A stretch of 64,000 bases of DNA from Obrimoposthia wandeli (GCA_977020255.1 CDROCS010000376.1:372001-436000); one strand, 5' to 3'; shown: positions 6,346-54,690, counted from the first letter of the stretch. Translations and numbers: made by a program. The notes: generated by a model from the letters alone, not told the origin.

Positions 6346-6363
6346 AATTCATTTACTGATGCA

Positions 6364-22419: not shown

Positions 22420-23030
22420 ATAGATTTTGGTACTGATCTGGGAAACATGTACCAGCGTCACCATCATTGGGTTCTTGAAGTACTCTTCTCTTTGAGGGTC
22501 TACATTTTCTTTTTATATTAAACTTGTCTTGAAATGTTTTTCAGCTTGTGACAGAACGATTCCAAGTATCAATTGGAGCAGTTTGTTATTTGACATCAGT
22601 ACATTCAACTTAGGACAGAGAAGTTTAAAATTAAAATCTCTTGAACCAATGACTATTCAACGTTAAAATGTTCCAACGGAATAAAGGTACACTGTCTCAA
22701 GATGATAGAGCAAATTTCCTCTGTCCGGAAAGCAGCAGTTATCGCCCTATTGACCAAACCCCTTGACTTTGGTAGACATGTAACAATTAACATATGTTTT
22801 TCTTCTTTATCTCTAGAGGATCATTTGAAAAGAAACAATACAGCAGTTGTTGGCTAGATTCTAAATAATAAGAACACAGACTACAGACGGAGAGGGGATA
22901 TCGTTGTATTCAAAGATGAGTGCAAATCAATCTGTGTCATTGTGGGATAATCCCCGTGCTGTTAATAAACATTCTATATTGAATAAAAATATTGTGTCGA
23001 CGCTGTGGGCAAAATAGTTAGGCTAGTCAT
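22420..23030 (+). mobile_element. Possible LTR-retrotransposon integrase C-terminal remnant
   Basis: Fragments GTDL, YRP..TP and GDIVVFKDE..VIVG are reminiscent of gypsy integrase/GPY-F regions. No intact frame. Confidence 0.3.
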
Positions 23031-23501
23031 TGTTTTCTGCCATTTGATAGGTTTTCCCTAAACGAAATGATCTGCAATCTGACATGTTTGTGCATCTTTG
23101 GGCAAAGTCAAGTTCCCAGTTGTCCCCAAATTAGACTTACCATGGATATGTTGGGGAAATCTAAAAGTGATGATGATTGATCACTTTGATCACCCCAAAA
23201 TCTGACAATCGAAAATGATACGTTGACTGAGGGATAAAAAGAATTGACCAACGACTACAACTTGTTGTCTTTGTAGAAGCCACAGTGGCAAAGAGTATAT
23301 CGTTACTACTTGCAATGAATGCTGTCATGAATTTTCATTATAGTTTATTTTATATATGTATAATTCTGCAGTTGGGTGCTATTTTACCACAAAAACTTTG
23401 TACGTTAATAATTAAATAGTGCAATTATAGATTACAGCACAAAAAAAACTTCAATATCAACCGATAGACATTGACTAAATGTGGATATGAATGTAAATTA
23501 T

Positions 23502-23595
23502 AGTAGGTGGATGTGTCCGGTCTAATCCACACCCCCTCCCCCTACTGTCCTTTAAAACCGTGCATGTGTGTGGAGTGAAATTTCGTGTAGGTGTG
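23502..23595 (+). repeat. Left terminal inverted repeat
   Basis: agtaggtggatgtgtccggtctaatccacaccccctccccc..gtcctttaaaaccgtgcatgtgtgtggagtgaaatttcgtgtaggtgtg. Its reverse complement is found at 40731-40807 and 54755-54848. Confidence 0.95.
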
Positions 23596-23879
23596 TAGAA
23601 AAATTTTCTACCCCCCCTCCCAAACACTCAAAAAAATAATTAACTCCATATAACACCCTGTAAATTTAAAAATCTCATAATGCTCCCAAAATTTTGATTA
23701 AGGTCCTGAGAGGCCAAAAAATTTTCCTTATAAAAATTTATATCCATACATATATACAAGGTCATAAAAAAAAATTTCTTTATAAGAATTTATAGGGTCG
23801 CAAAAATTTTTAAATAATCAACTACATAAATTCGAAATAATTTTCATTTTTATTTGATGAGTCATCAAATTAGTCATCA

Positions 23880-24075
23880 TGACCTCATGATGACCTAGAC
23901 AACTTTGTACCCTTGACCTCATGATGACCTTGACCTCATGATGACCTTGACCTCATGATGACCTCGAAAACTTTGTACCCTTGACCTAATGATGACCTTG
24001 ACCTCATAAGGTCATGACCTTAACTTGACCTCATGATGATGATGACCTCATAAGGTCATGACCTTAACTTGACCT
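23880..24075. repeat. Subterminal array of TGACCT/AGGTCA hexamers
   Basis: 16 TGACCT (23880, 23891, 23914, 23925, 23931, 23942, 23948, 23959, 23982, 23993, 23999, 24015, 24026, 24043, 24059, 24070) and 2 AGGTCA (24009, 24053), counted by eye. Confidence 0.9.
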
Positions 24076-24274
24076 GAAATGAGTTCATGAATTTTTTATA
24101 CCATCCAAACATGTACAGTCAAAAAATATTACTATTTTAAATCCAAAGACATACATGTATTCAAACATCAACAAAATTTAAGAAAATACCATAAATTCTT
24201 TGAATAATACGTTTTCATTGGACGTTAAACTTATACAACAAAATCTTAAGAAAATCTTAAGAAAATAGTTTTAT

Positions 24275-24564
24275 TTTCGAATAAAATATGTTTTATCCAA
24301 TGACATTCCAGCATTCAAACATAGTTAAAAAATTGAGAAAAGCCTACTGATTTTCAAATAAATTATTTGAATAACTCGCTCTCATTGGACGACAAAAGTT
24401 TAGTGATATACTTTCGAATAAAATATGTTTTATCCAATGACATTCCAACATTCAAACATAGTTAAAAAAATTGAGAAAAGCCTACTGATTTTCAAATAAA
24501 TTATTTGAATAACCCACTCTCATTGGACGATAAAAGAGGGTTAGTCTATTATTTTTGTATATAA
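24275..24564 (+). promoter_or_regulatory. 137-bp tandem duplication with CCAAT/ATTGG boxes and TATA upstream of gene A
   Basis: Units start at 24275 and 24412, with a third diverged unit upstream. CCAAT at 24297 and 24434, ATTGG at 24217, 24384 and 24522, TATATAA at 24558, ATG at 24621. Confidence 0.65.
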
Positions 24565-24620
24565 GGAAACCTCTTTTCAATATTTTTCATAAATCAAATA
24601 TCATCAATCAAGAAGCAAGA

Positions 24621-26732
24621 ATGTCAAATTTCAATAACGTCGATTTGGATGAAGAGACGGAGGTTCAGCTGTATGGGGATCTCTCTCCAGTACAGCAGCA
24701 AACGCCACCACCGGCGCAGTACATTGACTTACTTAGTCAAGACTCGTCGGTGGTGAGTGAAGGAGACGAAGGAGAAGCAGCAGCAAAAGCCCAACTGTTG
24801 CTAGAAGAAGAACCGCCATTGGCCAGCTCAACTCCAAGAGAACAACCAATGAGCGTGCGAGGTGGGGTACAGAGATCCCAATATATCGATCTGACTAGTC
24901 AGGATTCGATAGAGAATTGGGAAGACTGTACTCCCAGGCTGAACATAGAAGCCAATCGTCCGGCAACTTCAGCAGTAGCAGCAAGGAGATCCAATCTCTT
25001 CGACAATTTTGAGGCGGCAATCAAATGCCCCTGGAAATTGATCCCGCTGTCTCAACCGGAGATAATACTGGCACCAGACTCAGACGAGGAGTTGTTTACT
25101 GATGACGTTCCGTCGGATGGGGAGGAGGAGTGGATACAGCTAAGTATCGGAGCCCCGGGAGCCAACGAGTCCATGGTTGCAGAAATGGATGAAGAAGAGT
25201 GGGATCTGTTCACTGACGAATGGGATGGTCTCACTCCCTCTACAACTCCGACTCCGATACCCAACAATACAGTGCCTGATCCATTCAGAAGGCCACAATC
25301 TCCGATACGTCCTGTTAGGAGAATAAAGGCAACGAATGAGGTTAGAAATCATTTATTTAAAATGTTTTTTAATTTTATTTTCAGAAACTGCAACTTGATT
25401 TGGCACCGTCAGTGACCACGATTGAGAGGCTAATTGAACGTCAATACTTGGCGAGTCAATGTAGCCAGGATGATCCCAGGAGTGATCAGAGATACCTACC
25501 GACTCCGGCTAAAATTGAGGTATATTATTATAAATTAGTAAATTTATTTAATTATTCACTTAGGAAGCTGAGTTGGTGGAGGAAATTTGGGAGGAAGCAT
25601 CTCGGAGACTACCTGTCGATAGGAAGCAAGCGGCAGTTAAGAAACCTCGACGTCATCGAATCAAAACTAATACGGTCCATCGGAAGAAGGCCAAGTTGGT
25701 GAAACAGGCTAATCTGCCCGTCATCGAGGTAAATTATTTATATGTTTAAATTTTATGAATTTTTTTGTTGTTGCAGGGACCAATAATATTAACTGAGGAG
25801 ACATGGGCCAAAATTTCTCCTTTCCCGCAAAAGCGAACGAGGCAGTGTGCTGTACGGAAGACACGGCGTCTTAGAAAGGCAAAATCCTGTCTGCTCAATT
25901 CGAGTGAAGTAACGATTGAGCGGCAGGAAAATCTTCCGTATAAGATTATTGAGGTAATTTTTTGTTATTTTAAATATTTTTCTAATTAAATAAAATTTAT
26001 TTGAAAATTTATTTTTGTTTTCATTTGCAGGAACCTGTCCGGATAATTGAGGAGACTTGGGGAGAAGTTACTCCTTTCCCTAAGAAAAGGACAAAGCGGG
26101 CAGAGGTGAAGAAGACGAGGCGCGCGAGAAAAATTCGGACCTCAATTGGCCATTATTCTGAGGCGGTGATTGGCCAGCAGGAGATTCTCCCTCCTCCAAT
26201 GGACGACGGGCCTATCCTATATGAGAGGATCCCAGTCTCACCAATCGAGATAAGTCCGCACTCGAGTCAACAACGCCTGCAGGAGACTGCTTTTCCTCGT
26301 CCAACAACCAGCCAAAACTTGAAGAGGGCCTGGGATGACGCTGGTTTGGACGAATTCTTGGCGGAACTGGATACACCGGCAATGCTTCCAGATTCGCGTG
26401 GGCAACAGGATGCCGTCTCACGCCAGCTTCAGCGTGAGAAGGAGGAGAAACAGAAGAAAGCTCCGCGGAAGAGGAAGGCTACTGCTTCTATGTCGGGGCC
26501 ATCAACATCGGCTGCACCTCCTCCCAAAAAGTTGCGGCAACTATTGCCAAAACCCGAGGGAAGGACAATTGCTGTACAGCAACCGGTGAAGCCGAAAAAG
26601 AAACCGGGCCGACCAAAGAAGAAGGAACCAGTACCACTTTCTCCTATCAAAATAAGTCGGAGGGAATACGACCCGGATGATCCCAATGATGACTTCGTAA
26701 AAATGTTCAAAAATATAATTTATAAACATTAG
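24621..26732 (+). CDS. Polinton accessory gene A: ~632-aa, 5-exon low-complexity nuclear protein (SIM-like motifs, three exon-encoded repeats, NLS, AT-hook)
   Basis: Exons 24621-25340, 25385-25519, 25564-25728, 25777-25953 and 26031-26732, separated by AT-rich GT-AG phase-0 introns of 44, 44, 48 and 77 nt. Splicing joins three ORF-track fragments plus a frame-shifted exon (25564-25728) into one open frame. The 3' end could have one more intron near 26698. Confidence 0.8.
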
Positions 26733-27091
26733 TTTCTTGTGTTGTCTTTTTATTATTATTTATTTTAGAATTTAGTAATATTAAAATATACTACTTAAGT
26801 TTATTAAAATTACAAGATTAAAAGTAAAGTTTAGAATTTATTAATATTTAAATATCCTCCTTAAGTTTATTAAAATAACAAGATTAAAAATAAAGTTAAC
26901 TTATTCGAATGTGATTGGATTGTTAAGGAATAATTAAATTTTTTTAGGATTAAATATAAATGCAATGATTAGTTATATATTTATTAAACTTTCATTTGAT
27001 AAATATATTTTAATTACTTGTGATTGGATTAAAAATATCTTAAATTTATATATATAGGTTCAAATTTATTAACATCTTCATAATTAAAAAA

Positions 27092-27421
27092 ATGGAATTT
27101 ATTAAATTGCAAAGTTTGGTGACGAAGATCGAGACAAACATAAGAATAAATGAGAAGAAAGGAGACTTACGAAAGAGGATCCTCAACCAGAATTTATATA
27201 CTGCTGTCGCGACCGAGTGGAATCGTCGGGTGGAGATTCAGGACAGGCGGCTAGCAGAACGACGTCGGGTTGTGGAGTGGAACAAGAAAATCGAAATGGA
27301 AAAAAAGAAGGTGGAGGAAAAAAGAAGAGAAGAGACGGAGGATGTTCGGCGAGCAGAAAGAAAGCGAATCCTCCAGATTAAACCGGAAGAGGGTCCTTCC
27401 ACAAAAAAATTAATTTTATAG
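27092..27421 (+). CDS. Polinton accessory gene B: 109-aa charged coiled-coil protein with a SERTA/IER-like N-terminal motif
   Basis: Intact ORF with upstream GTGATTGGATT boxes (ATTGG at 26914 and 27023) and a TATATA. The LQSLVTKI..LRKRILNQNL resemblance is by eye only. Confidence 0.7.
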   Translation: MEFIKLQSLVTKIETNIRINEKKGDLRKRILNQNLYTAVATEWNRRVEIQDRRLAERRRVVEWNKKIEMEKKKVEEKRREETEDVRRAERKRILQIKPEEGPSTKKLIL

Positions 27422-27562
27422 ATTATTATTTTGTCTTTATTGATTATGTTATAAAATTGTCTAAATATTAAATTGTCTAAATACTACCTCGTCATTTTAA
27501 TAAATTTTTGATTAATAGTTTTTCGTTATAAACAACGGGATTTGCTACAAATTTGGGTAATT

Positions 27563-28051
27563 ATGCAGGAATATATCATAGATTTTGAGGCTTTCATTAA
27601 CAAAAATGGGGATTATATTATAAAAGAATTATGTATTATGGATGTATGCGACGTTTTTCATCCTTTGCATTTCATATTTCATATAGATATCCCATTTAAA
27701 AGTTTAGATTATAAGAAAAAATTTACTAATTTATATCTAACTAAATATTTCCATTTATTAAAATGGAAAGAAGGACATAAGGCTTTTTGTGAAATATGTA
27801 TTTTCGATACTATTAAATCTAATTTTGAAATTGAAAATGGAATTTTTTATGTTTTAGATGACATGGATGGCAAAAAATATAAGACTTTAAGAAAATATTT
27901 TCCTAAATTGAGGTTGAATACTTTAAATATTTCACGTGATCATCTATTAAAAATTCCACAAAATATTTCCTGTCCATATCGTAATCATGGTGACCATTGC
28001 GCATATAAAAAATGTTTAAGTCTTTCTTATTATTACTTGACATGTAGATAA
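27563..28051 (+). CDS. Polinton accessory gene C: DEDD/DnaQ-exonuclease-like protein with a C-terminal Cys/His cluster
   Basis: MQEYIIDFEAF..YIIKEL..HFIFH..LYLTKYFHLLKWKEG..CPYRNHGDHCAYKKC matches the D.E/Q.F..IKEL..H.L.W..G..C..H..CA pattern of a recurrent Maverick accessory family. Confidence 0.7.
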   Translation: MQEYIIDFEAFINKNGDYIIKELCIMDVCDVFHPLHFIFHIDIPFKSLDYKKKFTNLYLTKYFHLLKWKEGHKAFCEICIFDTIKSNFEIENGIFYVLDDMDGKKYKTLRKYFPKLRLNTLNISRDHLLKIPQNISCPYRNHGDHCAYKKCLSLSYYYLTCR

Positions 28052-28063
28052 ACAATTCTTCTA

Positions 28064-28405
28064 ATTGGAGGAATTCATTATTAAAATTTTACAATTATTT
28101 ACAAATAAGCCTTTTGATTGGAGGAATAAATTATTAAAATTTTACAATTATTTACAAATAAGCCTTTTGATTGGAGGAATAATTTTTTTTTCAACCTATA
28201 ATATATGAATAATCCTTCTCTTTAATTGGAGGAATAAAATTATTTTTTCAACTTATAATAGATAAACAATCCTTCTCTTTAATTGGAGGAATAAAATTAT
28301 TTTTTTCAACCAATAACAGATAAACAATCCTTCTCAGTGGAGGAATAAATTCAATTTTTTAATCCAATAGGAAAAGAACATGTGTGCATAAATTTTAGTA
28401 TATAA
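28064..28405 (+). promoter_or_regulatory. Tandem 53-57-bp repeats each carrying ATTGGAGGAA, plus TATA: putative pPolB promoter
   Basis: ATTGG at 28064, 28117, 28170, 28225 and 28282. CCAAT at 28310 and 28364. TATATAA at 28399, ATG at 28447. Confidence 0.65.
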
Positions 28406-28446
28406 GCAAACACTTTCTTCATTTAAATCCCCGACAATTTGAAATA

Positions 28447-31400
28447 ATGCCTATGGTAAGAATTTATTTTTCTTATTTCCTTATTAATATTTATTATTTC
28501 AGATTACGTGTAACCTATTCCCTGCGTATTGCGCTGCTTCGGCTCCGCATGGAGGAGAGTCCTGCATGGAGACAATGTCTGCATACTACCGGACAAAGTC
28601 TCAAGGTGTTCTGTTCTTCGTCTGCCCTTTCTGCAGAACAATGGAGGAGAAGGAGTTTCGAGAATTCTTCTGTGAACATCGAGCTCACCTATCGTGTTTC
28701 ACGGCCAACAACAAGAAGAGGGATATCGTCCAATTGGTGCGCGATTCGCAGGCCGCTCCAGCTCCACCTCCAATTCCAGTGGCAGTCAGTCTACCAGTTT
28801 ATGGTCCTGTCATTGGTCCTTCTCTCCCGGCTCCTGATTCTGCTGCTGCCCCATCCACTCAAATGTCTAACAATGAGTGGATGAACGACATCTCCGAGGA
28901 AGATTTTGAGGAGTTGGCACCAGCAACCCAATTCTCAAACAATGACTGGATGCGAAATATCACCCAGTCAGAATTCGAGATGGAGCAGCCTCAGTGGAGC
29001 GATAACTCATGGTTGGAGACCATCGATGAATCCAATTTCGTCGAGTCAACGGACGACAGCTGGATGGATTCCATCAATGAAGAGGACTTCATTCCAGCTC
29101 AACTTGGATTGTCATCATTAGGTATTTTTTTATTTTTTTTTGTAAATAGTAATTATATAATTTATTTTTTAATATATATATCTTATTTTTATTTTTTTAT
29201 TCAGGAAATACCGTTCTACAATCGTCATCTGCTACAACAGATATGCCTCCAATGTCGCGAGTGCCTACATTGATGTTAGGACGCCTTAGAGGTAATAATT
29301 TTTAAAAATATATTTATTTTTTAATATATTTATTTCAGCAGCACTAACCTCTAAAACAGCCGCTTCTTCATCGGCAAGGTCAGCGGTCCCTTCAACATCA
29401 GCTACAGTTGCCTCAACATCGGCAGCATCACCAATAGCAGCACCTTCAACCTCAGCTGAGTTTGTGTCAACTGCTAATATAAATAGTTGTCTTCCCGTTA
29501 AATTAGGGGGAGGTTTGTCAGCGACAAACGGAAGAAAGAGGCGAGGCCAATTTCTTAATAAGGTCCCACCCAAAAAACGTAGAGAAAACGGTGCTACTAT
29601 AGAGTATCACCTAAATAATAAATATGTTATAGTTAAGGTGCCATTAGGAAATGAAATTTTATTAAACGTAGGTGTAGATTCAAATATTGAAAATCTTTTA
29701 AAATCAGAAGTGACTAAATTAGGACAGGCTAAGGTTCAATTTTGCGCAACAGTGCAGTTTAAAAATGTCAATGAGGAAACTAAAACTTGGGTAATTTCAC
29801 ATAAAGCAACTGTTTTTTATGATAATTTTGTAACTGAAATTGGAAGAAACCTGGATGAAAAAATTGCTAATTATAGCGAGTTAAGTAGTGGATGGACTCT
29901 AGTTAGAATTCACGATGTTAGCTTTGTTCTAACAAAGTTCACTGACATGATATATCTTTCGGGGAGTTCATACATTCCTTCACCTAGATCTCTTCAACTT
30001 TCACGTTCCATTGTTAACGTACAAAACAGTGATAACCTTTGCTTTCTGTATAGCGTGTTGGCCATCCTCAAAAGGGATGTAATTACTGAGCATAGAGAGC
30101 GTGTCAGTAAATATACCCCTTTTTTAAATGAATTGCAGTATCATGGAATAGATTTTCCTGTTAAATTAACTGCGATATCAAGATTTGAACATCTTAATAA
30201 CTTGAGTATTAATGTATTCAAATATAATACTGATATCTCAGTTAATGTAACAGATGAAGAAAATTTTAAAAATCCTTTAGTAGATGTAATTTATAGGAGT
30301 AAAAATGAGGGGACTCAGGTCAACTTAATTTTTCTCGAACATAATAAAAAATTCCATTATGCTGCAATTCCCAATTTAGATCGTCTTCTAAATTTAGATA
30401 ATGGAGCCTTACCGGTTAGGATAAGGTGTAAGTGGTGTCATAGATGTTTGCATGGGTTCCGATCCGAGCTCTCTTACAGCAAACATCTGACATTATGTTC
30501 ACTGAATCCTGATGACAATACGCTATATAGCATGCCTAAGGATAAGGATTTAAAATTCAGGGATTGGGCAAAATGCATACCCGTGGAATTCAGGGTGTAT
30601 GCAGATTTTGAGTCAATTTTAGCATTGCACGACCAGTATGAGAGTATTCACCTACCGGCTTCGGCAGGACTACTATTCTTAGGCCCCAATATTACCCAGT
30701 ATCATAAATTTTCCGGTCCAAATTGTATTTTAGATTTTATGTTAAAATTAGAGGAATTAGGAACAACAATTGTCAAACCGTGGTATGATCTCAATGCTCA
30801 TCAAGCAATGATCATGACAGGCATAGACTGGGTTAATTTTAATTCTTGTAGATTATGTAATTTGTGTGGAACCCAGTCTAAGTTAGTCAGAGATTACGAT
30901 CATGTTATGGGGCGATACTTGGGAGCGGCGTGCAACCTTTGTAACCTTGGCCGTTGTCTCCCTAAAAAACCACGCATTCCCATCGTGTTTCATAACCTCA
31001 AAGGATATGATTTGCATCATATACTTAAATACGCGTTGGGTACATTAAGCTCTTGGGAAATTTCATGTATGCCTCAAACTTCAGAGAAATATTTATCTTT
31101 AACTGCATATACTGAATTCTGCAGTTTAAGATTCATAGATTCTCTGCAGTTTTTGAGCGGGTCTTTAAAAAATTTAACGGCATCTTTAAATGCATGGCCA
31201 ATTACACAGTCAGTGTTCCCAACTTCGGTTAACGATAAGGGGATTTTTCCGTATCAATTTGCGAAAATTTTCGCAGATTTAGAAAATACAACTGAAATCC
31301 CACCCATAACTGAATTTGAGGGTGTAAGTCTTCAAGACTATAATGAGGCCCGTACATTTTGGGTGAATAATTGTCGAAATCGTTTAGAATATATGCTTTA

Positions 31401-32888
31401 TTATATGAAGTTAGACATTTATCTTTTAGCTTATGTTTTTGAGTCCTTTCGTGTAAAGTCTTTAGCAGAAGATGGGCTAGATCCCATGCATTTCTTTAGT
31501 TTACCTGGTCTTTCATGGGCAACAGCAATAAAAACTCTTAAAATTAATATTGAGTTACTGCAAGATCCCGCGATGTATCAAATGTATGATTATGGTATAC
31601 GCGGTGGAATGACTTTTGTCAACAATCATCATGTTGTCAAAAGTCAATCCACGGAGATTCTGAACATCGACATTAATAATTTGTATGGGTGGGCGCTTAC
31701 TCAACTTCTTCCTCATGCCAACTTTAAGTGGGTTTATGATGAGGAAGAGTTGAATAAGTTGATGACAGATTTGGCTACTGTTGATACAGTTTCATCAGAT
31801 ATCGGCTATTTGGTTGAGGTTGACTTAACAATCCTTCCAATGTGCATGATAAATTAGATGATCTTCCAGTAGCGCCTGTTCATCAATACCCACCTAATTC
31901 AAAGGTTAAGAAATTATTGTTAACCCATGAAGACAAGTTGAATTATGTTGTGCATTGGCGGCTTCTTCAATTCTACTTAAAGTTGGGAGCGAAAGTTACT
32001 CGAATTCATCGTGCTAAAAGCTTCAGTCAAAACTTTGTGTTTAAAGACTATATTGAGAAGAATTCAAGAAAACGTAATTTGGCCACTAGCAAATTCGATC
32101 GAGATTTTTATAAGTTAAAAAGTAATAGTCTCTTTGGAAAAACTGTAGAGGACTTGCGGAAACGTATTTGTCTACGGTTTTGCAATGATGAGCGTAAACT
32201 AAAAACATATACTAGCAAGTACAACTTTAAGCGTAGTTTTACAATTGCAGATGACTTGGTAGCAGTGTTATTAGGAAAACAGAGTATTTGTCTCGATCGA
32301 CCGAGTTATATAGGTCAAACGGTTTTAGACATTTCTAAACTCAGAATGTATGAGCTTCAATACATAGAATTGGAGAAATACCGACAAGAATTTAATTGTG
32401 AGATTAAAATCGCAGCTGGGGACACTGACTCTTTCTTTTTAGAATGTAGGAATGTTAGTTTAAATAATCAATTATTACCAGCAATGTTTAGGGACAAATT
32501 ACTAGATACCCATAAATATCCCGCTAACCATCCTCTACACTCTATGAGTTTAAAGGACATTATCGGGAAATTTAAGGATGAAAGCGAGGGACAGGTTTCG
32601 TATGATGATTGTATTTTCCTACGCCCTAAATGCTACAGTTTACATGCATCTAATAATACATGGTCAATGAGAGCAAAGGGTGTGGGAAGAAACAATCTTA
32701 CACATGAGGCCTACCGGAAAGTTTATGATACTGGGTGTATTGAAAGCGTTGAGCAAACTAGATTTATTTCAAGAGCCCATCAACTGTATTCCCATAAATC
32801 AACCAAAATCGCTTTGAGTAGTAATGACGACAAGCGCTTTTGGGTAGAAAAGAACGCTAGCCTGGCTTATGGACACTTCAGAATTTAA
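28447..32888 (+). CDS. polB: Protein-primed DNA polymerase B with spliced N-terminal extension; one -1 frameshift near 31836
   Basis: Exonuclease motifs YADFES, FHNLKGYD, YMKLDIY. Polymerase motifs DINNLYG, KLKSNSLFGK, AGDTDS, LRPKCY, KG. Predicted exons 28447-28455, 28503-29121, 29205-29291, 29339-32888. The join of ORFs 29464-31857 and 31842-32888 is repaired by one extra C in atcc[c]ttcc (LTIPSNVHDKLDDLP). Confidence 0.95.
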
Positions 32889-33161
32889 ACGGTTTTCATT
32901 TTTTGATTTTTTAGTTTAGTTTTTTTAAATTTTAGATCCTTATGGCACTTAGACTCTAACTTATTTGTTATTTCAATACTTTTTAGGATGGACCTTATTT
33001 ATTATGCCTTATCTTTGCTGACATATCTCATTGTGATGTTGTGATTAATAAATGTATTAAAAAAAATTGTCTTATGTCTTTTATTATTTTACCCTTATAT
33101 TTTTAGAGATTTAAAAAATAATTCAAAATAAAACATTTAAAATTTTTATTTTTATAACACA

Positions 33162-33543
33162 CTAATCGTTTTGCAACGATAACCATAAAATACATAAATG
33201 TCCACAGTTTCTCGTCGCAGGATCCTGATATTGTATCTTGTTGTAAAATACTCTTCTTCGTCCTTTTTGAATAGTTGAAACAAGTTTGTGTGGATAATAC
33301 ATTGCAAGTGGATCAAATACATGTATTGTTCACTCTCTAACATAAATAGCTATCCAATGTTCTCCTGGTAAATTCGAAGTATGAGTATTGATAATGTAAC
33401 CTCCAGATTGAAAAAAATGGAATCATATCAATAGGATAAACTCCATTGAATTTATCACCCAGGACCTTCTCTGCTGATTCTTTTACTTGTTTTGAACTTA
33501 ATAAAAATTAATAAATATAAATTTAAAATATGTCTTACTCCAT
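33162..33543 (-). pseudogene. Adenain-type maturation cysteine protease (PRO), spliced, disrupted
   Basis: Not in the ORF track. ATG-GA micro-exon (33543-33539), 42-nt GT-AG intron (33538-33497), then MDSKQVKESAEKVLGDKFNGVYPID..GGYIINTHTSNLPGEHWIAIYVRE*TIHVFDPL..QYQDPATRNCGHLCILWL. Catalytic H, D, Q and C are present. One extra T in a T7 run (33411-33417) and an in-frame TGA (33330-33332). Confidence 0.9.
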
Positions 33544-33544
33544 T

Positions 33545-34776
33545 CTATAATATGACAGTTCTGTTTTTATTGATTTGTATTTCCGAATCAAATACTCCGT
33601 AAATAAGCACCGTAGTAGGATTTGTTAAAGCTGCATTGAACTTAATTTCTAGTCGTAAATTTCCATCCTTTGGTAGTTGGCATTGGTTTATATCAAAGTC
33701 TGGTGCCAAAACAAATGTGAAGAACGGGCAGCTGTTTTTAAATTCAGTGAAAGAAATACCATTGTTTATATTTTTATCTAGTTGACCCAAATTCCGAATA
33801 ATAGATTGGGTATAAGCCAAAGCATAAGCGTTACCTTCGAAATCTGTTTTATATGTTTCACGATAATCAGTATTTCTTGAAAGTGTCACTGAACCAACAT
33901 TGAAGATTGTCAAATTGAGTTGCATCTGTCGTATAATTTCCTAGAAACTTTGCAGTTTTTTGGAAAGAAATTAAAATGAATTTCGGTAATCTTACACCAC
34001 CAAAAATTTGATCCTTATTAAAAGCTTGTGTACCCGTACCTAAAAAATAAGATATAAGTTTAGTTTCTCTAATAGGATAACAAGCATTGTTTTTTTCCAT
34101 TCCTATATTATGTGCCATTAAAACTGATTGCTCGGTTTTAACTCTTCGAACATACAATTTTGCATCCAAAATATCAAGTCTAGGTTTTAGAATGTCCGTG
34201 CTTGTCAAAGAAAAATTCCATTTATTACGTTTCAAACGAAGATGTACATTAACACCGGGAATTAAATATTTCGGTTGTTCAAAGAAATTCAATCTCAAAG
34301 ACCCACACATTTCGTAAGCTTTAGAACCTGCAATCCATTCTTTGCGAGTTGCATCAGTTTTATCATAACCAATGGTTGCCAAATTAGTATTTTGAGTATC
34401 AGTACTATAATTCAAAAGACTTTCAATCAAAGCTTTATGAGCATAGGAAGAAATTTCCACCTTCAATTTTGACATTATTAAGAGTAACAATGGCATCATT
34501 AAATAAAGAATTAAATAGATAATTTACAGGTGTTACATCGGCATTTTCATCTAAATTAGTACCATCCCGATTTAATACTTTTATTTGAACATAAAGCAAA
34601 GTATCATTCAAATCTAAATACTCGCTATTGGAACCATTAATATTAAATTCTAAATCGGTTAAAATGGTTCCTTAAACTGAGTTAACTAGGAATATTTCTT
34701 CAAAGGAAGCATTATCTACAACTACTTGTGGAAGCGGTTTATCAAAAATACATAAATCAGTTTTGGCGCAACTCAT
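33545..34776 (-). pseudogene. Major capsid protein (double jelly-roll, hexon-like), disrupted
   Basis: MSCAKTDLCIFDKPLPQ..LEFNINGSNSEYLDLNDT..VTPVNYLFNSLF..YAHKALIESLLNY..FFEQPKYLIPGV..LAPD..GNLRLEIKF..VLIYGVFDSEIQINKNRTV is the typical Polinton MCP. One TAA (~34672) and frameshifts near 34455 and 33905. Confidence 0.9.
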
Positions 34777-35085
34777 TTTGCAAATATTGTTCCTTCAACT
34801 TTCTTACGTTTGTTTATATTAAGTTTTAGCTTCTTTTACTTTTAAATCCACTACCTCCTTGGCTTTTATTTGATTTACGTTTTCTAATCAAATTAGCAAC
34901 TTCAGGTAAAACATTATCAAGTTCATCAATTTTGATATAAATCGCCCGAGTCTCTTTAAAAGAGGAAAGGCAAATCTACCTAATGTTCTAAGCCAGCCAG
35001 ATCCGTATTGTTTACCAACAAAATATGGTAATTCTCCACCTTGTTGGCTTTGACTATAAGCTTCAATTATTGCTGGATTCGCCAT
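34775..35085 (-). pseudogene. Small Gly-rich amphipathic virion (core/membrane-lytic-like) protein, frameshifted
   Basis: YSQSQQGGELPYFVGKQYGSGWLRTLGRFAFPLLKRLG matches the conserved Polinton Y..Q.GG..F.G...G.G..L..L.R.A.P.LK peptide. The basic C-terminus KRKKVEGTIFAK* is in another frame. Confidence 0.7.
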
Positions 35086-36103
35086 TTTGTTTTCTTAAAT
35101 GTATTGTTAAACTTGTCTTGGCCCCGTACGTGAAATCTATTAGTTGTCCGGAATCATCTCTAATATTTACTTCAATATTGTTTATAGAAAAGAGAGAAAC
35201 TGGAAGATACATTGGTTGATCTATACACATACCGACAGTGTCTCCATCTCTAGTTTCATTTTTAGATATCCATATTGTTCTCAAAAGTGGAACTCGCTGT
35301 CCTCCTACAAGCGTTGGTTCTATTAAATTAGTATAAATATATAAATTATTAACAGCATTTAAATGTTTTGCCTTATTTTTAGCTTTTATGGTTTTTATTG
35401 TATGGATTTCAAAGGTATTTCTGTTTAAACCAAGGTTTTTAGCGAGTTTATCATCAAATGAAACTCGTTTTATATTGCTCTTTACTGTAAACGTTAATTT
35501 ACCATTTAATGTTTCACATTTATCCAAATATTCACTACATTCCTTCTGTATTAATTTACAGAAATTCACTTCACTATCTATTTTATAATCTTTTGAAAAC
35601 GTTTTCAGTTCCACTACAGTCTTTGGTCTCGTTTCAAGTAACAACACTTTTGCTACTCTACCAGGAACATTTCTAACTGAATTAGATGAGATAATATCCC
35701 GTTTATTACGAGCTACTGTTTGTTCACTATCAAAACTGAATTGAAGAGCTTCTTTTTTAGATTCAAAATTAATTTTAATAACTTGAAGAAATTTTAATCG
35801 ATTTTTAAATCTGACTTTGTTATTTTCAAATATTACTTTCACTTCTTTATCTATACAATTGTAATAGAATTGTCCTTTACTATCAAACCCGATAACAACT
35901 TCAGTTGTTTTTTCATGATCAACTTCTTTTGTAAACGAAATATGTGAGTTTTTTTGATAGTAATTGGAGAATAATAAAAAGAAAATTCTGTTAAAGCCGC
36001 TTCCCATAGAATTTTCCCAATCGATAATAAAGCTACTAGCGTCATTATCTGGTTGAGTCTTCGGACATCCGTTACTTGGTAAAACCATATACATAGAATT
36101 CAT
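35063..36103 (-). CDS. Minor capsid protein (penton-like)
   Basis: N-terminal YMVLPSN..P.N..SF and C-terminal LYIYTNLIEP..VG..VPLLR..MYLPV..IEVNIRDDSG..F..G..LTIHL. The conserved WEAALTEFSF lies in another frame, indicating a compensated double frameshift. Confidence 0.85.
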   Translation of the reverse strand: MNSMYMVLPSNGCPKTQPDNDASSFIIDWENSMGSGFNRIFFLLFSNYYQKNSHISFTKEVDHEKTTEVVIGFDSKGQFYYNCIDKEVKVIFENNKVRFKNRLKFLQVIKINFESKKEALQFSFDSEQTVARNKRDIISSNSVRNVPGRVAKVLLLETRPKTVVELKTFSKDYKIDSEVNFCKLIQKECSEYLDKCETLNGKLTFTVKSNIKRVSFDDKLAKNLGLNRNTFEIHTIKTIKAKNKAKHLNAVNNLYIYTNLIEPTLVGGQRVPLLRTIWISKNETRDGDTVGMCIDQPMYLPVSLFSINNIEVNIRDDSGQLIDFTYGAKTSLTIHLRKQNGESSNN

Positions 36104-37128
36104 ATTATATTAGATGCTGATATCCAAGTTGGGTCTGAATAACCATGCCATTTAACAAAGTATTGTTTATGTTTACCTGTACCCTTAGATTTTAATATTT
36201 TTTGAATACGGTAAACGCTAGGTTTATTTGATATTACTTGTAGTTCTTGCTCGTAAAATTTACCGTGAACGATATTATTGTCAGCATCTTTAATAGTATA
36301 CATTATTGGATTACTCTTTTGATCAATTTTACTTATACAAAATATTTCATCGCTCCAATTCTGATCAAAGTTTTTAATAAATGGAGTAGAGCTAATTTTC
36401 GAAATTCGAACATATTCGTTTTTCTTATATTTAGATTTTTTAATTTTAGATTTTTTATTCCTGTTCATCCAAATGTCCATAGAGTTTTTATTAGTAACAT
36501 CAACAGGTCTCATTCCCTTGAGACCTCTATGTTCAGAGTGATTATATGCATGTATTATTTTAGGTAAAACTTGGATCCATTTTTTATTTCCTTCTTTTGT
36601 GAAATACTTTTTTATTCGATCTCTTAGAGTACGATTAAATCTTTCTACTACTGCTGCTTTGTATTGGGAAAACACAGAGTAATGATTTATATTATTTTGT
36701 TTAAATAATGATTGAACTTGCTTATTATAAAATTCTTTTCCTAAATCAGTTTGCACATTTTGTGGAATGTCCTCTTTTAATATTTCTTTAATGGCTTCAA
36801 GCATAGCTATTGAAGACTTTGCTTTAACTGGAATTGCACGAGCAAACCTGCTAAATACATCAATACATGTTAAAATATATCGATATCCCTTATTAATGGA
36901 AGAATATGGGATCATCTCCATCAAATCCATTTGCCATAAATTATTAGGACCGCTGGTTTTGTAAGCTCTAGTTGGAAACCTTCTTCTCATCGGCTTGTTC
37001 AGGCTGTAGGCTAACTGGTCGCTCAGCCATTTCTGCGTTTTCTTGTAATTTTGTTTTGTTCTTTTTGCTAATTTTGAAACTCCTGTGTAGCCAATTGGAT
37101 CTTTTGGATTGAACCATATCTTCTCCAT
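36100..37128 (-). CDS. int: RVE-family integrase with C-terminal chromodomain, intact (342 aa)
   Basis: WQMDL, QTDLGKEF and AAVVERFNRTL (D-D-E). C-terminal YRIQKILKSK..QYFVKWHGY..TWI chromodomain. ATG at 37128 (MEKIWF) is supported by the homologue at 5530. Confidence 0.95.
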   Translation of the reverse strand: MEKIWFNPKDPIGYTGVSKLAKRTKQNYKKTQKWLSDQLAYSLNKPMRRRFPTRAYKTSGPNNLWQMDLMEMIPYSSINKGYRYILTCIDVFSRFARAIPVKAKSSIAMLEAIKEILKEDIPQNVQTDLGKEFYNKQVQSLFKQNNINHYSVFSQYKAAVVERFNRTLRDRIKKYFTKEGNKKWIQVLPKIIHAYNHSEHRGLKGMRPVDVTNKNSMDIWMNRNKKSKIKKSKYKKNEYVRISKISSTPFIKNFDQNWSDEIFCISKIDQKSNPIMYTIKDADNNIVHGKFYEQELQVISNKPSVYRIQKILKSKGTGKHKQYFVKWHGYSDPTWISASNII

Positions 37129-37214
37129 TACAACAATTTGAATAGAAAGAAAATTTAAGTTTAGGTAAAGAAGGGCTAGCACCCATATCTTTAGCTGGTT
37201 TTAGAAATAATTGT

Positions 37215-37544
37215 TTATGAACGTGTCGCAGCTATAATACTACTGATAATTGAAGCAACAACTGGAATAACAGCCCCTATGAAACCACCATTATGTTTAA
37301 GAATAATATTTCGTTTTCTTTTTTTACTTTTTACATTAGCAATATCTTGAAGAGGTTTTCTATATTTCTTTAATATATTTTTCCGATTTCCAACTTTAAC
37401 TCGACCCAAAACTATATTATACAAAACTTCCAATAAATCATCTACAACAAAGGATGGAAATGCTTTAAGAATAATCATTCTCTTATTAGAAGAGGCTTTG
37501 ACTAAAGCTTTAAAATAGGGTATGCTTCTTTGTATTTTCTTCAT
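37215..37544 (-). CDS. Small basic conserved Polinton protein with GG-F motif and hydrophobic C-terminus (putative virion core/cement)
   Basis: LLEVLYNIVLG..LKKYRKPL..KRKRNIILKHNGGFIGAVIPVVASII matches the recurrent Polinton E..N.L.G..L..YK..L..KR..L.Q.GGF family. Confidence 0.75.
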   Translation of the reverse strand: MKKIQRSIPYFKALVKASSNKRMIILKAFPSFVVDDLLEVLYNIVLGRVKVGNRKNILKKYRKPLQDIANVKSKKRKRNIILKHNGGFIGAVIPVVASIISSIIAATRS

Positions 37545-37723
37545 TTTAATAAAAAAGGTTTAATTTAAATATTGTTTATATTCGAAGCCATTTAAGTTTT
37601 TTTTTATTTTTAACTACAGATTTGATTAATTTTTTAACTTCTTTTTTCTTAATGATTCTTTTTTTTGATTTCTTAGATTTTACTTTACGTTTTACTATCA
37701 ACTTTGTAAAAGGCATTGCGAAT

Positions 37724-38370
37724 TTATTTTTTATAATTGTTCTCTATTTGTTTATAAACAGTTACTCCCTTAGATTTAAATATGTCTGTTAAAACACGTA
37801 AATCATCTGGGCAAGCTTCTGTAAAGTCAATAAATATATACCCATGTGCTTGTTTAGCAGCATCGTGGAATGAATCAACTAGAAAGTTCTTATTTTGAGG
37901 AAATGCCTGTCTGGCCACAAAATCAACAACTGTTTGATCTCTAGGATTTTTAAATAAAACTAAGTAATGTACATTAAGATTTCTTGTTCTATGATGACCT
38001 CCTGGTGAAACAGATTTTGAGTGATAAATATAACTGTTACTTCACGATGTCTTGCAATCTTTGTAAATAAATTATTAAAGTCCGATTCCTTGTTAGCCTC
38101 CTCATACAAATCATCAATTATTATTACATCTTCTTTTTTCAATCTTTCACACCAATTTGCATCAAATCCTTCAATAAATTTTATACCCTTCAACTTGCAA
38201 ACTTCTGTTTTGGTTAACCCGCTTTCCCCTCCTCCACCATGATGCCAATAAATATTTTTGAAACTAGATTTGAAAAGAGATTCATTTTGCAACAATTTAC
38301 AGACGAAATTTGTCTTTCCACTTCCACTTGGGCCAACTATTTGAAATACAGCATTATTATTTAGCTCCAT
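37724..38370 (-). CDS. FtsK/A32-like genome packaging ATPase; one frameshift near 37997
   Basis: GPSGSGKT (Walker A), IIIDDL (Walker B), ARH..IFITQNLF. Continues in another frame as GGHHRTRNLNVHYLVLFKNPRD..HGYIFIDF..LRVLTDIF. Confidence 0.92.
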
Positions 38371-38407
38371 TGCATATACTCTTTCATTTTTAATATTGTT
38401 TATATTA

Positions 38408-38680
38408 TCATAGAAGTTTCCTTATTGAAATGTACAATGTTAGAGCTATTGTAGATGAAATACAAAAATTAATTAATGAATATTTGACTATAATTTTATT
38501 TATTTGTGTACGAATTCTAAATTCTCGAATAACGTGTGATCTAACCAATATTTCAATGTTATCTCTTGTTATATCATTATTTTTTAATTCTGATAAAATT
38601 TCTTTACCCCTTATTTTTCCAGAAAATATTTCATCGGCAAGCCGATCCACTTCATTGTCTCTATTTATAGTATTATTCAT
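38408..38680 (-). CDS. Hypothetical 90-aa protein with C-terminal hydrophobic segment
   Basis: Intact ORF between the ATPase and TBP-like genes in the same orientation. Ends YSLINFCISSTIALTLYISIRKLL. Confidence 0.5.
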   Translation of the reverse strand: MNNTINRDNEVDRLADEIFSGKIRGKEILSELKNNDITRDNIEILVRSHVIREFRIRTQINKIIVKYSLINFCISSTIALTLYISIRKLL

Positions 38681-38708
38681 TCAAAACAATAAGTTTAAAC
38701 GGGTTTGT

Positions 38709-39208
38709 TTATAGAAAAGATAACAAGATGTAATAAGATATATTTTCTAAAATCAAATCAACAATGTCTGGATAATAAAAATTTTTCAATCCCAATATCA
38801 TAACTTTACCACTGGAAAATATATTTACACATAGCGGTTTAAACTTCAAATAACTGAGAGCAGGAAATATTTCTGGTTCAAACATGCATTCTTCTTTCAT
38901 TTTCTCTGCAGTTTTAAAAAGATTTATCTGTTTTCCGAGATTAGCCGAAATCGTGATTGATTGTATTGCAGTGATTTGAATTCCAAATGGTAAATTGAAC
39001 CCAAGCATTGGTATTTTGCATCCCATAACACGACAATTTCCTAAAGAATTCAATATGAAAATAAAATAAAAAACTAACCTGTAGGAAAAATAACAACTGT
39101 GAAATTGTCAAACCTTTCTACATATTGTCTCGGCTTCCATTCATTGAATGGTAAGTACGAAACATCATCTTCTGTTCTACCTTTATAATTTATATTTACG
39201 AGTTTCAT
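38709..39208 (-). CDS. TATA-binding-protein (TBP)-like protein, 153 aa, 2 exons
   Basis: Exons 39208-39079 and 39040-38709, 38-nt GT-AG phase-1 intron. Repeat 1: MKLVNINYKG..TVVIFPTGNCRVMGCK. Repeat 2: IQSITISANLGKQINL..FEPEIFPAL..PLCVNIFSSGKVMILGLK. Compare TBP QNIV..LIFxSGKxVxTGAK and YEPELFPGL..LIFVSGKVVLTGAK. Confidence 0.85.
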
Positions 39209-39487
39209 TAGACTAAAATTGTATTCTGTAAAATCTTCTTTATATATGTCTGAACCTGCTATTTTATTGCACGTTTCTTGTAATTATCTTGCAAACCTAT
39301 TATAATTGGATGATATATTTCTTCCAATCAATTTTGATTTTTAATATAGATTTAGTCCAATCAAATTCAATGCTTTAGTTATATTAACCAATGAGATTCA
39401 TGTCTTTGTTAGAAATTAGTATAAAAGAATGCGCCATTGGAGGACAAATCACAGTAAATGCATTCATATCAAAGACAATTATCAACG
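39209..39487. promoter_or_regulatory. Divergent promoter between the TBP-like gene and paralogue pair
   Basis: CCAAT at 39324, 39357 and 39388 (33/31-bp spacing), ATTGG at 39305 and 39436. TATA on - at 39239-39246 and TATAAAAG on + at 39420. Conserved in the inverted copy at 57090-57320. Confidence 0.65.
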
Positions 39488-39934
39488 ATGGACGATAGCC
39501 AACGGGTATTAAGCGATGACGAAGAAATGTTTGAAGAATCGGATAAGGATATGTATGAAGAAGTGAAACAATATTTCAAATACAAAGTCAGATTCTTGAA
39601 GAAGGCTCAACTGATTGCTTTAGTAAATCCTGTGACAATTGAAAGAAGAAAGTTCAGCTACTATATATCAGGTATTCAAAAACCTGATTTTCAAAATCTT
39701 AAACAGAAAATAGAAAAGGCAGTTCCAAATTTTACTTTCAATAAGAACGAATTTTATATCTGAGGAGCCGATGAAGCATTTCTAGATGACTATGGAAGAT
39801 ATGTTGATATTGATGCGTTTCCGAAAAAGAAGCAATGGACTCTAACAATTCGACTTTATGGTTACAAGAAAGATGAAATGGGGACAAAGTTGCCTATGTG
39901 GAAAATTGAACGTGCTCATATTTCTATGTTTTAA
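39488..39934 (+). pseudogene. Accessory gene D1 (paralogue of 40068-40472); one in-frame TGA at 39761
   Basis: The frame continues past the TGA: GADEAFLDDYG..WTLTIRLYGY..PMWKIERAHISMF*. Aligns along its length with the next ORF. Confidence 0.75.
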
Positions 39935-40067
39935 CTTTTGTGTGTAATAAATTGTAATCGGTTTTACTATGTTTCTTTCATTTAATAATCAGTTTTATTT
40001 GTATCTTATTTGTATCTTATGTGTATTTTTTATAAACATTGTTTTTAATCAGTTTCCTTATTTTAGA

Positions 40068-40472
40068 ATGGATAAGAGATGTGTAGCAAATTTTTATTAT
40101 CCAGAAAGAATTTCAAAAAGAAAACTATGTAATATATTAAAGAGGCATCAAATTATACGAATTATGAATCCTGTGAAAATATCAAAAGTGGAGAAAGAAT
40201 ATCTCATCGAAATTTTAACAACAACTGATTTTGATCAACTGAAAAATATTTTGGGATTTTACATTCCTGATTATGTATATGAAGGAAATTGTTTCGAGCT
40301 TGAAACTGATCCCAGTCTGGATTTTAAAGATGATCTAGGATATTTGATTGCCCCAATTCTAGATGAAGAACTATGGAATATCTCAATACGTCTCAATGGA
40401 TATTTTGCTGATGACGGGAAAATGCAGCCTCTCTGGACTTTGAGTGAAGCCAATATGTTGTTTTATGTTTAA
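40068..40472 (+). CDS. Accessory gene D2 (paralogue of 39488-39934), function unknown
   Basis: MDKRCVANF..ILKRHQIIRIMNPVKI..DFDQLKNIL..FKDDLG..WNISIRLNGY..PLWTLSEA. The ATG is preceded by ttttag, so an upstream exon is possible. Confidence 0.75.
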   Translation: MDKRCVANFYYPERISKRKLCNILKRHQIIRIMNPVKISKVEKEYLIEILTTTDFDQLKNILGFYIPDYVYEGNCFELETDPSLDFKDDLGYLIAPILDEELWNISIRLNGYFADDGKMQPLWTLSEANMLFYV

Positions 40473-40730
40473 TAAATATTTTGAAAAATAATTTTGTCTC
40501 GTATTTTGTTTTTGCTCCTCTAAATTATATAGATCTGACCGATTTCTCTCCTCTAAATTATAAAACTGACCTAGATATTTAACATGTAGTAATTTATTAA
40601 TCTAAAATCCGGGGTCAATATGGATTCTCGTGGTCTTCTCTAACCACTTTTGAGATTCATGGTAAAAGTTTAACAAATATGGTGGGGGGTTACCCCTTCC
40701 TTCCCCCTTTGGGTGGAATGGAGACATACA

Positions 40731-40807
40731 TACACGAAATTTCACTCCACACACCTACACGGTTTTAAAGGACAGGGGGGGGAGGGGGGTTGTGGATTAG
40801 ACCGGAT
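40731..40807 (-). repeat. Right terminal inverted repeat (13 nt missing just inside the terminus)
   Basis: tacacgaaatttcactccacacac..ggttttaaaggacag..gtggattagaccgga-t. Lacks cacatccacctac relative to the left TIR. Confidence 0.9.
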
Positions 40808-41779
40808 GATTATGAATATATTAAACATCAACAAATGTATTATTTAAATATCTATGAACATTTTTAAAGTACATGCTCATGTATTTATGATTTTAGTGAA
40901 AGTTTATTAGATCGCATTAGATTCCAGTGCATCTAAATGCTGAATATTATTCTTTTATTTAATTCTTAATAATTGCTGTTAATTTTGCAACATTTATTAA
41001 AAAGAAACCACCATGTGTTTGTTATGGTAGAAATTTGGCCCAAATTATTGATTAATTTTCAACATAAAAATTGTAGAATTTATAATTATATATACATTTG
41101 AAGGAAAATAGAGAAAAATCCGAAATCAAAGAAGTTACTTTTCAGAGATAAATTTACGTTTAATATTCGTTTCTTTTCAAATTTAAATCGTAATTCCAAA
41201 CCAATGAATATTTTTTCTATTTTCTTAGTTTATTTATCGATTTTTTCGATATTAATATTTTTATTTGTTCTTACCTCAGAAAACTAAAAAATTAGAAATA
41301 AAAAAAAATATATATATATTGATTAAATTTATTTATACAGTAGGTCCGAAAATTCTGACAAATATAAAGAGAAAGAAAATTTTAAAAATTATTTTCTGCG
41401 ATTAATCAATACTTGAATTTTAAAATTCCACATTTAATGAAGCTCCATTGGCAGCCGATCATTACCAGAATTGAATTCAAGATCCTACTTATTATCAAAA
41501 AGAAGTATTCTCCCACTAAATCCCAAATATTTATATGATCTTCTCGACTCTAGAAAATAACTGCAGATTGGCCTATAAATTCTCAAATAACAAACAGAGT
41601 GATGAAAGATTTGAAATCGATACTCAGAATCTTTACAAAAATTTACCGATGAATGCTTTATTATTCAGATATTAATATGAAGAATTATTGAAAATCGTAA
41701 GCACCTTTGAGTAATAAATCATAGCTTTGTAAGATATTAGCGCTGCATTAAATATATCATTGTTATTGTTTGAAATGTA

Positions 41780-53968: not shown

Positions 53969-54185
53969 TGTGGTGTGGTGGGGTGTAGTGTTGGTGGTGA
54001 ACCACCAGCAGCCTAACGCCCACCGACTTTTACCCATCACCCGTCGACTTTCACCCAACACCCATCGTAGTTATTTTCGTGAGAATAGAGCCCGCCCTGA
54101 AGGGGGAGGGTGGTGGTCGGTTGGGTGTTTCCATCCAACACCCGTCGACTTTCACCCATCACTCGAGGTAGTTAGTGATATACAC

Positions 54186-54640
54186 GAGAGCGAGACATTC
54201 ACCCATCACCCAAGCTAGTCTGTGACATATACGAGAGCGAGACATTCGTACATCGGCAAGCTAGTCTGTGACATATATGAGAGCGAGACATCCGTACATC
54301 GCCAAGCAAGTCTGTGACCTATATGAGAGCGAGACATCCGTACATCGCAGGGCTAGTCTGTGACCTATATGAGAGCGAGATATCCGTACATCGCAGGACT
54401 AGTCTGTGACCTATATGAGAGCGAGATATCCGTACATCGCAGGGCTAGTCTGTGACCTATATGAGAGCGAGATATCCGTACATCGCAGGGCTAGTCTGTG
54501 ACCTATATGAGAGCGAGATATCCGTACATCGCAGGACTAGTCTGTGACCTATATGAGAGCGAGATATCCGTACATCGCAGGGCTAGTCTGTGACCTATAT
54601 GAGAGCGAGATATCCGTACATCGCAGGACTAGTCTGTGAC
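54186..54640. repeat. 46-bp tandem array, 10 copies
   Basis: gagagcgagatatccgtacatcgcagg(g/a)ctagtctgtgacctatat at 54186, 54233, 54279, 54325, 54371, 54417, 54463, 54509, 54555 and 54601 (last copy partial). No unique spacers. Confidence 0.95.
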
Positions 54641-54690
54641 CAATGTCGGTCCCGAGCCCTTCGCGCCGAGAGGCGCGAAAAACATTTAGA

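Follow-up and report, generated by a model that had tools for sequence, protein, structure and literature searches.

Vertebrate Mavericks (Polintons) have been described as carrying eight intronless open reading frames (ORFs), with no introns in intact elements, in the available text of Barreat and Katzourakis 2021 (PMC8097293), while group I introns have been reported from Polinton-like viruses of protists in the part of PMC12220804 that was consulted. Term searches of the accessible text of four further papers (PMC8502044, PMC11296320, 10.1101/2023.08.22.554363 and 10.1101/2024.03.25.586562) returned no spliced core genes, and the splicing of adintovirus core genes is not discussed in the accessible text of PMC8502044 and 10.1101/2024.03.25.586562. 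Here we analyzed a 64,000-nucleotide (nt) stretch of the Obrimoposthia wandeli genome (GCA_977020255.1, CDROCS010000376.1:372001-436000), hereafter called the window, that holds a Maverick/Polinton of ~17.3 kb (23503 to ~40790). Sequence comparison makes it very likely that nine short inserts in four genes of this element are true spliceosomal introns of the host type. The strongest and newest result among the nine is an intron at the very start of the protease gene.

All nine inserts begin with GT, end with AG, are 38-83 nt long and contain 6-17% GC, as against 25-55% in the 40 nt flanking them on each side. They are distributed over gene A (four), the leader of the protein-primed DNA polymerase gene pPolB (three), the protease gene (one) and a TBP-like gene (one). 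A preliminary description of the window had called them spliceosomal introns of Polinton genes; its coordinates, GT-AG ends, AT-richness and lengths were correct in all nine cases, and the assignment itself is very likely on the basis of ends, frames and homolog comparison. The continuous frames it had claimed were also recovered. After removal of the inserts, gene A is open for 632 amino acids from the ATG at 24621, pPolB for 1077 amino acids from the ATG at 28447 (intron phases 0, 1 and 1, open up to a decay frameshift) and the TBP-like gene for 153 amino acids, whereas the protease is broken downstream in the window copy, so that the continuity of its frame rests on sister copies. A T-rich 3′ tract accompanies the GT..AG ends and restored frames, as in U2-type introns, and homologs either share the position and phase of the inserts or lack them exactly, in the case of the protease, the TBP-like gene and the pPolB leader; for gene A this holds within the family. 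Self-splicing introns of group I or II, whose structured ribozyme core runs to hundreds of bases, do not fit inserts of 38-83 nt, and there was no Rfam match in 23000-41500.

In a splice-site scan of positions 23500-40800 that was blind to reading frame, all nine inserts were found, and every proposed donor and acceptor had the top score within 25 nt. The four additional candidates were two alternative ends of the same introns and two antisense overlaps. The number of distinct donors was 12, compared with 3.4 (maximum 10) in 100 local shuffles, a control that is indicative only, since the thresholds were set after the data had been seen. The scan, which was not exhaustive (it missed the protease intron of family B), found no introns in the integrase, the ATPase, the PZ-position gene, the minor and major capsid genes or the polymerase core of the window copy. 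Four sequencing runs from one sample, apparently of DNA, were uninformative on splicing; none of the 15 joints examined for 24500-29700 coincides with an intron.

The protease intron (33497..33538, minus strand; 42 nt, phase 2) is preceded by only five coding bases (33539..33543, minus strand), located 1 nt past the capsid stop, and followed by exon 2 (33162..33496, minus strand), which has one frameshift and one stop in the window copy. The protein had no match in Pfam, and was identified as adenain/pS273R-like from a profile of 13 homologs that matched pS273R (2e-5) and adenain (5e-5) in PDB. Exon 2 encodes 110 amino acids in eight of ten sister loci, the other two stopping at 103 and 76. 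The arrangement ATG-NN/GT..AG/T (slashes mark the junctions) was observed in all ten loci from the same genome, representing three families, and in all four metagenome contigs that cover the site, representing three lineages (two of the six contigs end before it). It was also observed in 30/30 loci retrieved by searching with a homolog that lacks the intron, five of which have a decayed ATG or splice end. Across these lineages, whose integrases are 58-69% identical to that of the window, the intron is 37-42 nt long, and its interior identity between lineages (0.63-0.75) is close to that of shuffled sequence (0.64). The metagenome contigs L262 and L263 differ by a two-base indel within it. The protease intron, which occurs at one site in six lineages, three of them from metagenomes, appears to be older than the other eight. 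Its trace is also visible in databases, where 92 of 151 protease homologs begin some two residues ahead of exon 2, with longer starts in 49 and shorter ones in 10. Among the top 20 homologs, four open with an intron-like read-through ending in the AG/T serine and five are truncated; P0010-P0013 open with such a read-through, and P0009 is the protease of contig L261, called from an internal Met. In a contrast set of distant viral proteases, an in-frame Met was present well upstream in 46 of 48 loci. No account of a Maverick protease with a spliced start turned up in the literature searched.

The pPolB gene (plus strand) opens with nine coding bases (28447..28455) that read ATG-NNN-ATG, the middle codon being variable in older copies. 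They are followed by intron P1 (28456..28502; 47 nt, phase 0), exon 2 (28503..29121), which encodes a Cys/His module and then an acidic, Trp-containing stretch, intron P2 (29122..29204; 83 nt, phase 1; 53-78 nt in older copies), exon 3 (29205..29291; 87 nt) and intron P3 (29292..29338; 47 nt, phase 1). Exon 4 (29339..32888) is intron-free and encodes a Ser/Thr/Ala linker and the polymerase core (PF03175), with a frameshift near 31824-31857. In the family B locus L147 and in contig L263 the Cys/His module lies 2-3 residues past a Met, in a single ORF with the polymerase (1304 codons from stop to stop in L263); the short first exon thus supplies a Met where these relatives have theirs. Contig L260 has a different pPolB leader with intron-like segments of its own, and leader introns seem to arise repeatedly, the polymerase core staying intron-free. 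Among 30 older copies, the substitutions of exons 2-4 that are shared favour third codon positions (47/34/80 over positions 1/2/3), as under selection in the spliced frame, and those that are private do not (149/154/140); intron lengths vary freely. The 9-nt and 5-nt micro-exons previously reported for pPolB and the protease are right as coding lengths, but the TATA-like boxes and the capsid-abutting ATG point to longer first exons. As a TATA-like box (28399..28406, plus strand) lies 48 nt before the pPolB ATG, the nine coding bases likely close a first exon of ~30 nt. Below the Pfam cut-off (E 0.006 and 1e-4), an endonuclease VII-like (HNH-type) stretch was seen within pPolB in the window (29341-31854) and in L263. 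In families B and C (L147 at 7900-8020, L143, L145, L153 and L157), pPolB and the TBP-like gene stand head to head, ~100 nt apart, in a gene order unlike that of the window family.

Gene A is an accessory gene of five exons on the plus strand (24621-25340, 25385-25519, 25564-25728, 25777-25953 and 26031-26732), interrupted by four phase 0 introns: A1 (25341..25384; 44 nt), A2 (25520..25563; 44 nt), A3 (25729..25776; 48 nt) and A4 (25954..26030; 77 nt). The protein has an acidic N-terminal and a basic C-terminal part and no Pfam match, and that it is a transcription regulator is a guess. No homolog was seen outside the element family, so the support for its introns is internal. Neither gene A exon 1 nor the Cys/His module of pPolB gave an ESM Atlas lead above 0.77. 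A second subfamily, b, represented by 30 copies whose exons show 77-86% identity, retains A1-A3 with altered lengths (38 nt for A2, 41 nt for A3) and lacks exon 4 and intron A4 as one block. Exons 4 and 5 open with repeats that are ~50% identical, suggesting that an exon-plus-intron module was duplicated or lost; A4 likely arose by such duplication. Shared substitutions in exons 1-3 are distributed over codon positions 1/2/3 as 25/18/56 and private ones as 46/42/49. Shared exonic indels are triplets only, while the intronic ones include changes of -7, -2 and -1.

The gene interrupted at 39041-39078, left unnamed in the preliminary description, was identified here as TBP-like (Pfam TBP, E 8e-12). 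It is encoded on the minus strand by two exons (39208-39079 and 39040-38709), and its 38-nt intron (39041..39078; phase 1, AG/G site) breaks the glycine codon of the F-x-x-G motif in the first repeat. Five of six database TBP homologs are continuous over this site and align to both exons without gaps, and the sixth begins just before it. The intron is also missing, by DNA alignment, in other Maverick families of the same genome and in two metagenome contigs, and in the TBP tree the two intron-bearing rows group together, against 11 intron-free rows. The simplest reading is a gain in the window's family at an AG/G site. Two apparent cases of intron loss (L149 and L151) proved to be deletions spanning the donor, not exact losses. 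A minimal TBP-like gene of ~150 amino acids was seen in several Maverick families of the genome (27,173 first-look candidates), and also in the metagenome contigs L260 and L263. No account of such a gene in animal Mavericks was found in the literature searched; in the accessible part of PMC8502044, a TBP-like gene is named in a figure legend on MELD viruses and related elements. No close relatives of the TBP-like or capsid protein were found in IMG/VR.

Taken over the four genes, the introns appear to be of two ages, the eight in gene A, the pPolB leader and the TBP-like gene likely having been gained in one family and the protease intron being older. Close copies (93-99% identical) kept GT..AG in 222 of 231 cases, which mostly reflects recent descent. 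Several observations weigh against the account of the inserts as introns spliced by the host. The preliminary description had expected the ends to be kept and the interiors to diverge; this held between families, for the protease, but only partly within the family, where interior identities of 0.91 (A1), 0.84 (P1) and 0.86 (P3) compare with 0.79-0.86 in exons. The A1 interior in particular, 91% identical between subfamilies, exceeds the exons, and interiors are thus not uniformly free. The preliminary description had also suggested a comparison with short host introns, and of 32 host junctions scored in myosin and chaperonin genes, some with boundaries of low confidence, 16 span 43-88 nt. The element introns match this short class, except that those of 37-42 nt are a little below the shortest host junction (43 nt). 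The closest protease match by score, P0008, is intron-free and sits among intron-bearing rows in a tree of 45 proteases, from which homologs longer than 200 amino acids or ranked below P0047 were excluded; the base of this tree resolves neither a single origin nor gain versus loss. Lastly, ~15 of 30 older copies have in common a one-base deletion in a C-run of pPolB exon 2, a possible sign of recurrent slippage or of a non-autonomous branch, and several shared indels in exon 4 are not triplets, so that frame is not always kept by shared exonic indels.

The shared frameshift in exon 2, together with the decay seen elsewhere in the copy, would suit a reading of the inserts as AT-rich spacers or products of decay after insertion, the pieces between them being separate ORFs or genes with other starts. 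That reading is very improbable in view of the exactly interrupted TBP motif, the third-position bias in each exon and the GT, AG and phase held over six protease lineages with randomised interiors; nor does any alternative in-frame start give the first 25 protease residues that are present in homologs. Slightly less improbable is partial trans-splicing of the acceptors, in which a flatworm-like leader ending in AUG would be joined to pPolB exon 2 and the local ATG would be a cis back-up. The Macrostomum leader ends in ATG, according to the part of PMC8629364 consulted, and the last codon of pPolB exon 1, before a phase 0 junction, is ATG in 19/19 close and 25/29 older copies; the protease junction, by contrast, is in phase 2, which would place a leader AUG out of frame, and pPolB has a TATA box as well as a good donor in cis. 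Least probable of all is that the introns are introner insertions or were acquired by single copies after integration, as in dinoflagellate Polinton-like elements, which do bear introners in the available text of PMC12166617. Introners are recognised as many near-identical introns, whereas the similarity among the nine interiors does not exceed that of shuffled sequence (p<0.05 in 2 of 36 pairwise comparisons). The introns are moreover common to all copies examined and to diverged lineages, and were thus present in replicating elements. We infer that splicing mattered while the element replicated.

If the inserts are introns, the element would have relied on the host nucleus for transcription and on the host for splicing. 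TATA-like boxes lie 38-63 nt ahead of gene A (24558..24565, plus strand; 63 nt before the ATG), pPolB and the TBP-like gene (38 nt before its start), and these three may be early genes transcribed by host RNA polymerase II, with introns gained in the window's family. No such box was found in the 80 nt that precede the protease ATG, nor before the other late genes checked, for which some start positions are approximate. The protease intron is the only one found in the late block. In 7/7 sequences its donor is 1-8 nt past the capsid stop and the distance from that stop to the protease ATG is -4 to +3 nt; without splicing, this ATG reaches a stop after two codons. Our preferred working model among the sub-options, held tentatively, is that capsid and protease share one late transcript on which ribosomes would reinitiate at the protease ATG, and that protease output depends on splicing. 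Unspliced RNA would then yield a two-residue peptide, and protease would come from spliced RNA alone, in small amounts relative to capsid. A junction within roughly 50 nt of a stop does not trigger nonsense-mediated decay, and the junction here would lie inside that distance, sparing the capsid mRNA.

Two points count against reinitiation: a conserved TGGGA-type motif is absent from the 90 nt upstream in 7/7 sequences, and other late genes are also tightly packed, within a few bases, so that the stop-start distance may merely reflect compaction. As no reinitiation motif was found, it is nearly as likely that the introns are real and the protease has a short transcript of its own, starting inside the capsid 3′ end. 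Its intron would then be an ordinary 5′-proximal one, comparable to the start-proximal intron that pPolB carries downstream of a TATA box, and compaction would explain why it lies so near the capsid stop. This possibility sits less well with the lack of a TATA-like box before the protease ATG, unlike in gene A, pPolB and the TBP-like gene, and with synonymous sites at the capsid 3′ end, which vary between families. A conserved capsid-protease fusion frame was rejected, because the frame offset differs between lineages, and no AATAAA that could serve an intronic poly(A) switch is present in the protease intron. Returning to the shared transcript, its extension to the whole clade of TBP-encoding animal Mavericks is speculative and rather unlikely. 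The protease would there be controlled by a conserved splice switch and stop-start reinitiation, with the TBP-like protein driving the late unit, in parallel to, and distinct from, adenovirus L3 splicing.

To judge from the literature searched, the conserved protease start intron is new for Mavericks, whose core genes are usually described as intron-free, and it bears on surveys in which 'intact' copies are screened as intronless ORFs, as in the available text of PMC8097293. Its presence at one site across lineages with integrases this diverged implies that the elements, while active, were transcribed in the nucleus and spliced by the host, and its single junction offers a simple, testable handle on Maverick late-gene expression. 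The effect on annotation is narrower than previously proposed. Gene callers do misannotate such genes, as P0009 and P0010-P0013 illustrate, but the breaks in hallmark genes of the window copy are mostly decay frameshifts. An ATG-based caller loses the pPolB leader (the first ATG of the core ORF is at 29947), the protease start, the first exon of the TBP-like gene and the unity of gene A. The practical cost is that the clade's database proteases are miscalled at the N-terminus and that the pPolB leader is lost. The suggestion that much of the coding content would escape ORF-based annotation did not hold, as ORF calling still recovers the integrase, the ATPase, both capsid genes and the polymerase core, in which no intron was found; with these hallmark ORFs visible, the weight for element discovery is lower than first supposed.

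The element itself shows the inverted termini and the length (15-20 kb) of a Maverick. The left terminal inverted repeat (TIR) region (23503..23596, plus strand) starts with AGTAG, and the right repeat (40724..40788, minus strand) forms with it inverted arms of 65 nt at 91% identity, but is clipped, its outermost bases being absent. The right terminus, where one copy of a 6-bp target-site duplication would be sought, is thus incomplete, and a distant arm at 54751-54848 has no matching flank. The family is present in high copy in the 1.35 Gb assembly, with 979-6901 candidates per DNA search, of which 40 copies were scored each time. Frameshifts in pPolB, capsid, ATPase and protease mark the window copy as decayed. 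Pfam matches identified pPolB as a protein-primed family B polymerase (PF03175, E 3e-15 and 2e-7 on its two pieces), the integrase (rve, E 4e-13, plus chromodomain; 36100..37200, minus strand, intron-free) and the packaging ATPase (Pox_A32, E 5e-7; 37724..38421, minus strand, frameshifted). The major capsid protein (33545..34776, minus strand, frameshifted) had no match in sequence searches. A model of its family B homolog (predicted local distance difference test, pLDDT, 51, low confidence) matched mavirus, iridovirus and other capsids in a PDB fold search (E down to 2e-8), as expected of a double jelly-roll. Between it and the probable minor capsid gene (35063..36109, minus strand; labelled from position and synteny) lies a short conserved gene (34888..35094, minus strand), which from its position we take to be PZ.

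Other features were noted around these genes. The probable minor capsid gene is present in two tandem copies in L263 (5610-7684). In family B, intron-like segments occur opposite the late-gene strand, between a small basic gene and the integrase (L143 4319-4378, L145 4205-4393 and L153 5620-5680), and are absent from the window copy. Most of the ten regions fetched contain Mavericks of differing families or ages, nested or adjoining (L144, L148, L150 and L156). The window has a further Maverick end copy at 54699-54848, which includes a 50-nt hairpin, shows 93% complementarity to the left end and adjoins a 46-nt tandem array at 54168-54690. Inverted copies of two right-hand accessory ORFs, 76-85% identical, lie at 39346-40339 and 56351-57215 and are likely a fragment of a related element. 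A host exon at 62333-62932 (plus strand) matches a discoidin-domain-receptor DS-like domain (E 9e-10); with this domain and its myosin heads, the genome looks animal-like. Elsewhere in the genome, ~20 intron-free Cpn60_TCP1-like chaperonin ORFs of ~550 amino acids on separate contigs (loci L226-L249) form an unusual expansion, perhaps borne by mobile elements.

The window element shares with vertebrate Mavericks, as far as the available text of PMC8097293 describes them, pPolB, an rve integrase, the ATPase, two capsid genes, TIRs, a protease directly behind the major capsid gene and mostly decayed copies, and differs from them in its interrupted pPolB and protease genes and in having a TBP-like gene. 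Nematode Mavericks likewise have an intron-bearing accessory gene close to the left repeat, where gene A lies, and have an intronless core, with introns brought in by host-derived cargo, in the accessible part of 10.1101/2022.07.12.499685; in contrast, the window element has introns in two core genes, and no host source was recognised for gene A. With adintoviruses it has in common a C-terminal chromodomain on the integrase and an adenain-like protease after a hexon-like gene, in the available parts of PMC8502044 and 10.1101/2024.03.25.586562. An OTU-like domain at the pPolB N-terminus belongs to the Starrett/Buck definition of adintoviruses; no match to the OTU family was obtained for the window or L263 pPolB protein in a sequence-profile search of Pfam at E<=0.05. 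The fusion of hexon and adenain by frameshift suggested in the accessible text of the same two papers misfits the capsid-protease frames of the window lineages, which vary. Dinoflagellate Polinton-like viruses also have spliceosomal-type introns inside the elements, which are transposon-derived introners, mostly no older than those of the host, in the part of PMC12166617 consulted. The introns of the window, in contrast, are mutually unrelated and shared across lineages. In the L3 unit of adenovirus, the protease gene also lies directly behind the major capsid gene and its expression depends on splicing, which there joins the long late leader to an alternative 3′ splice site ahead of the protease start codon; the protease of the window element instead has a short cis intron after its ATG.

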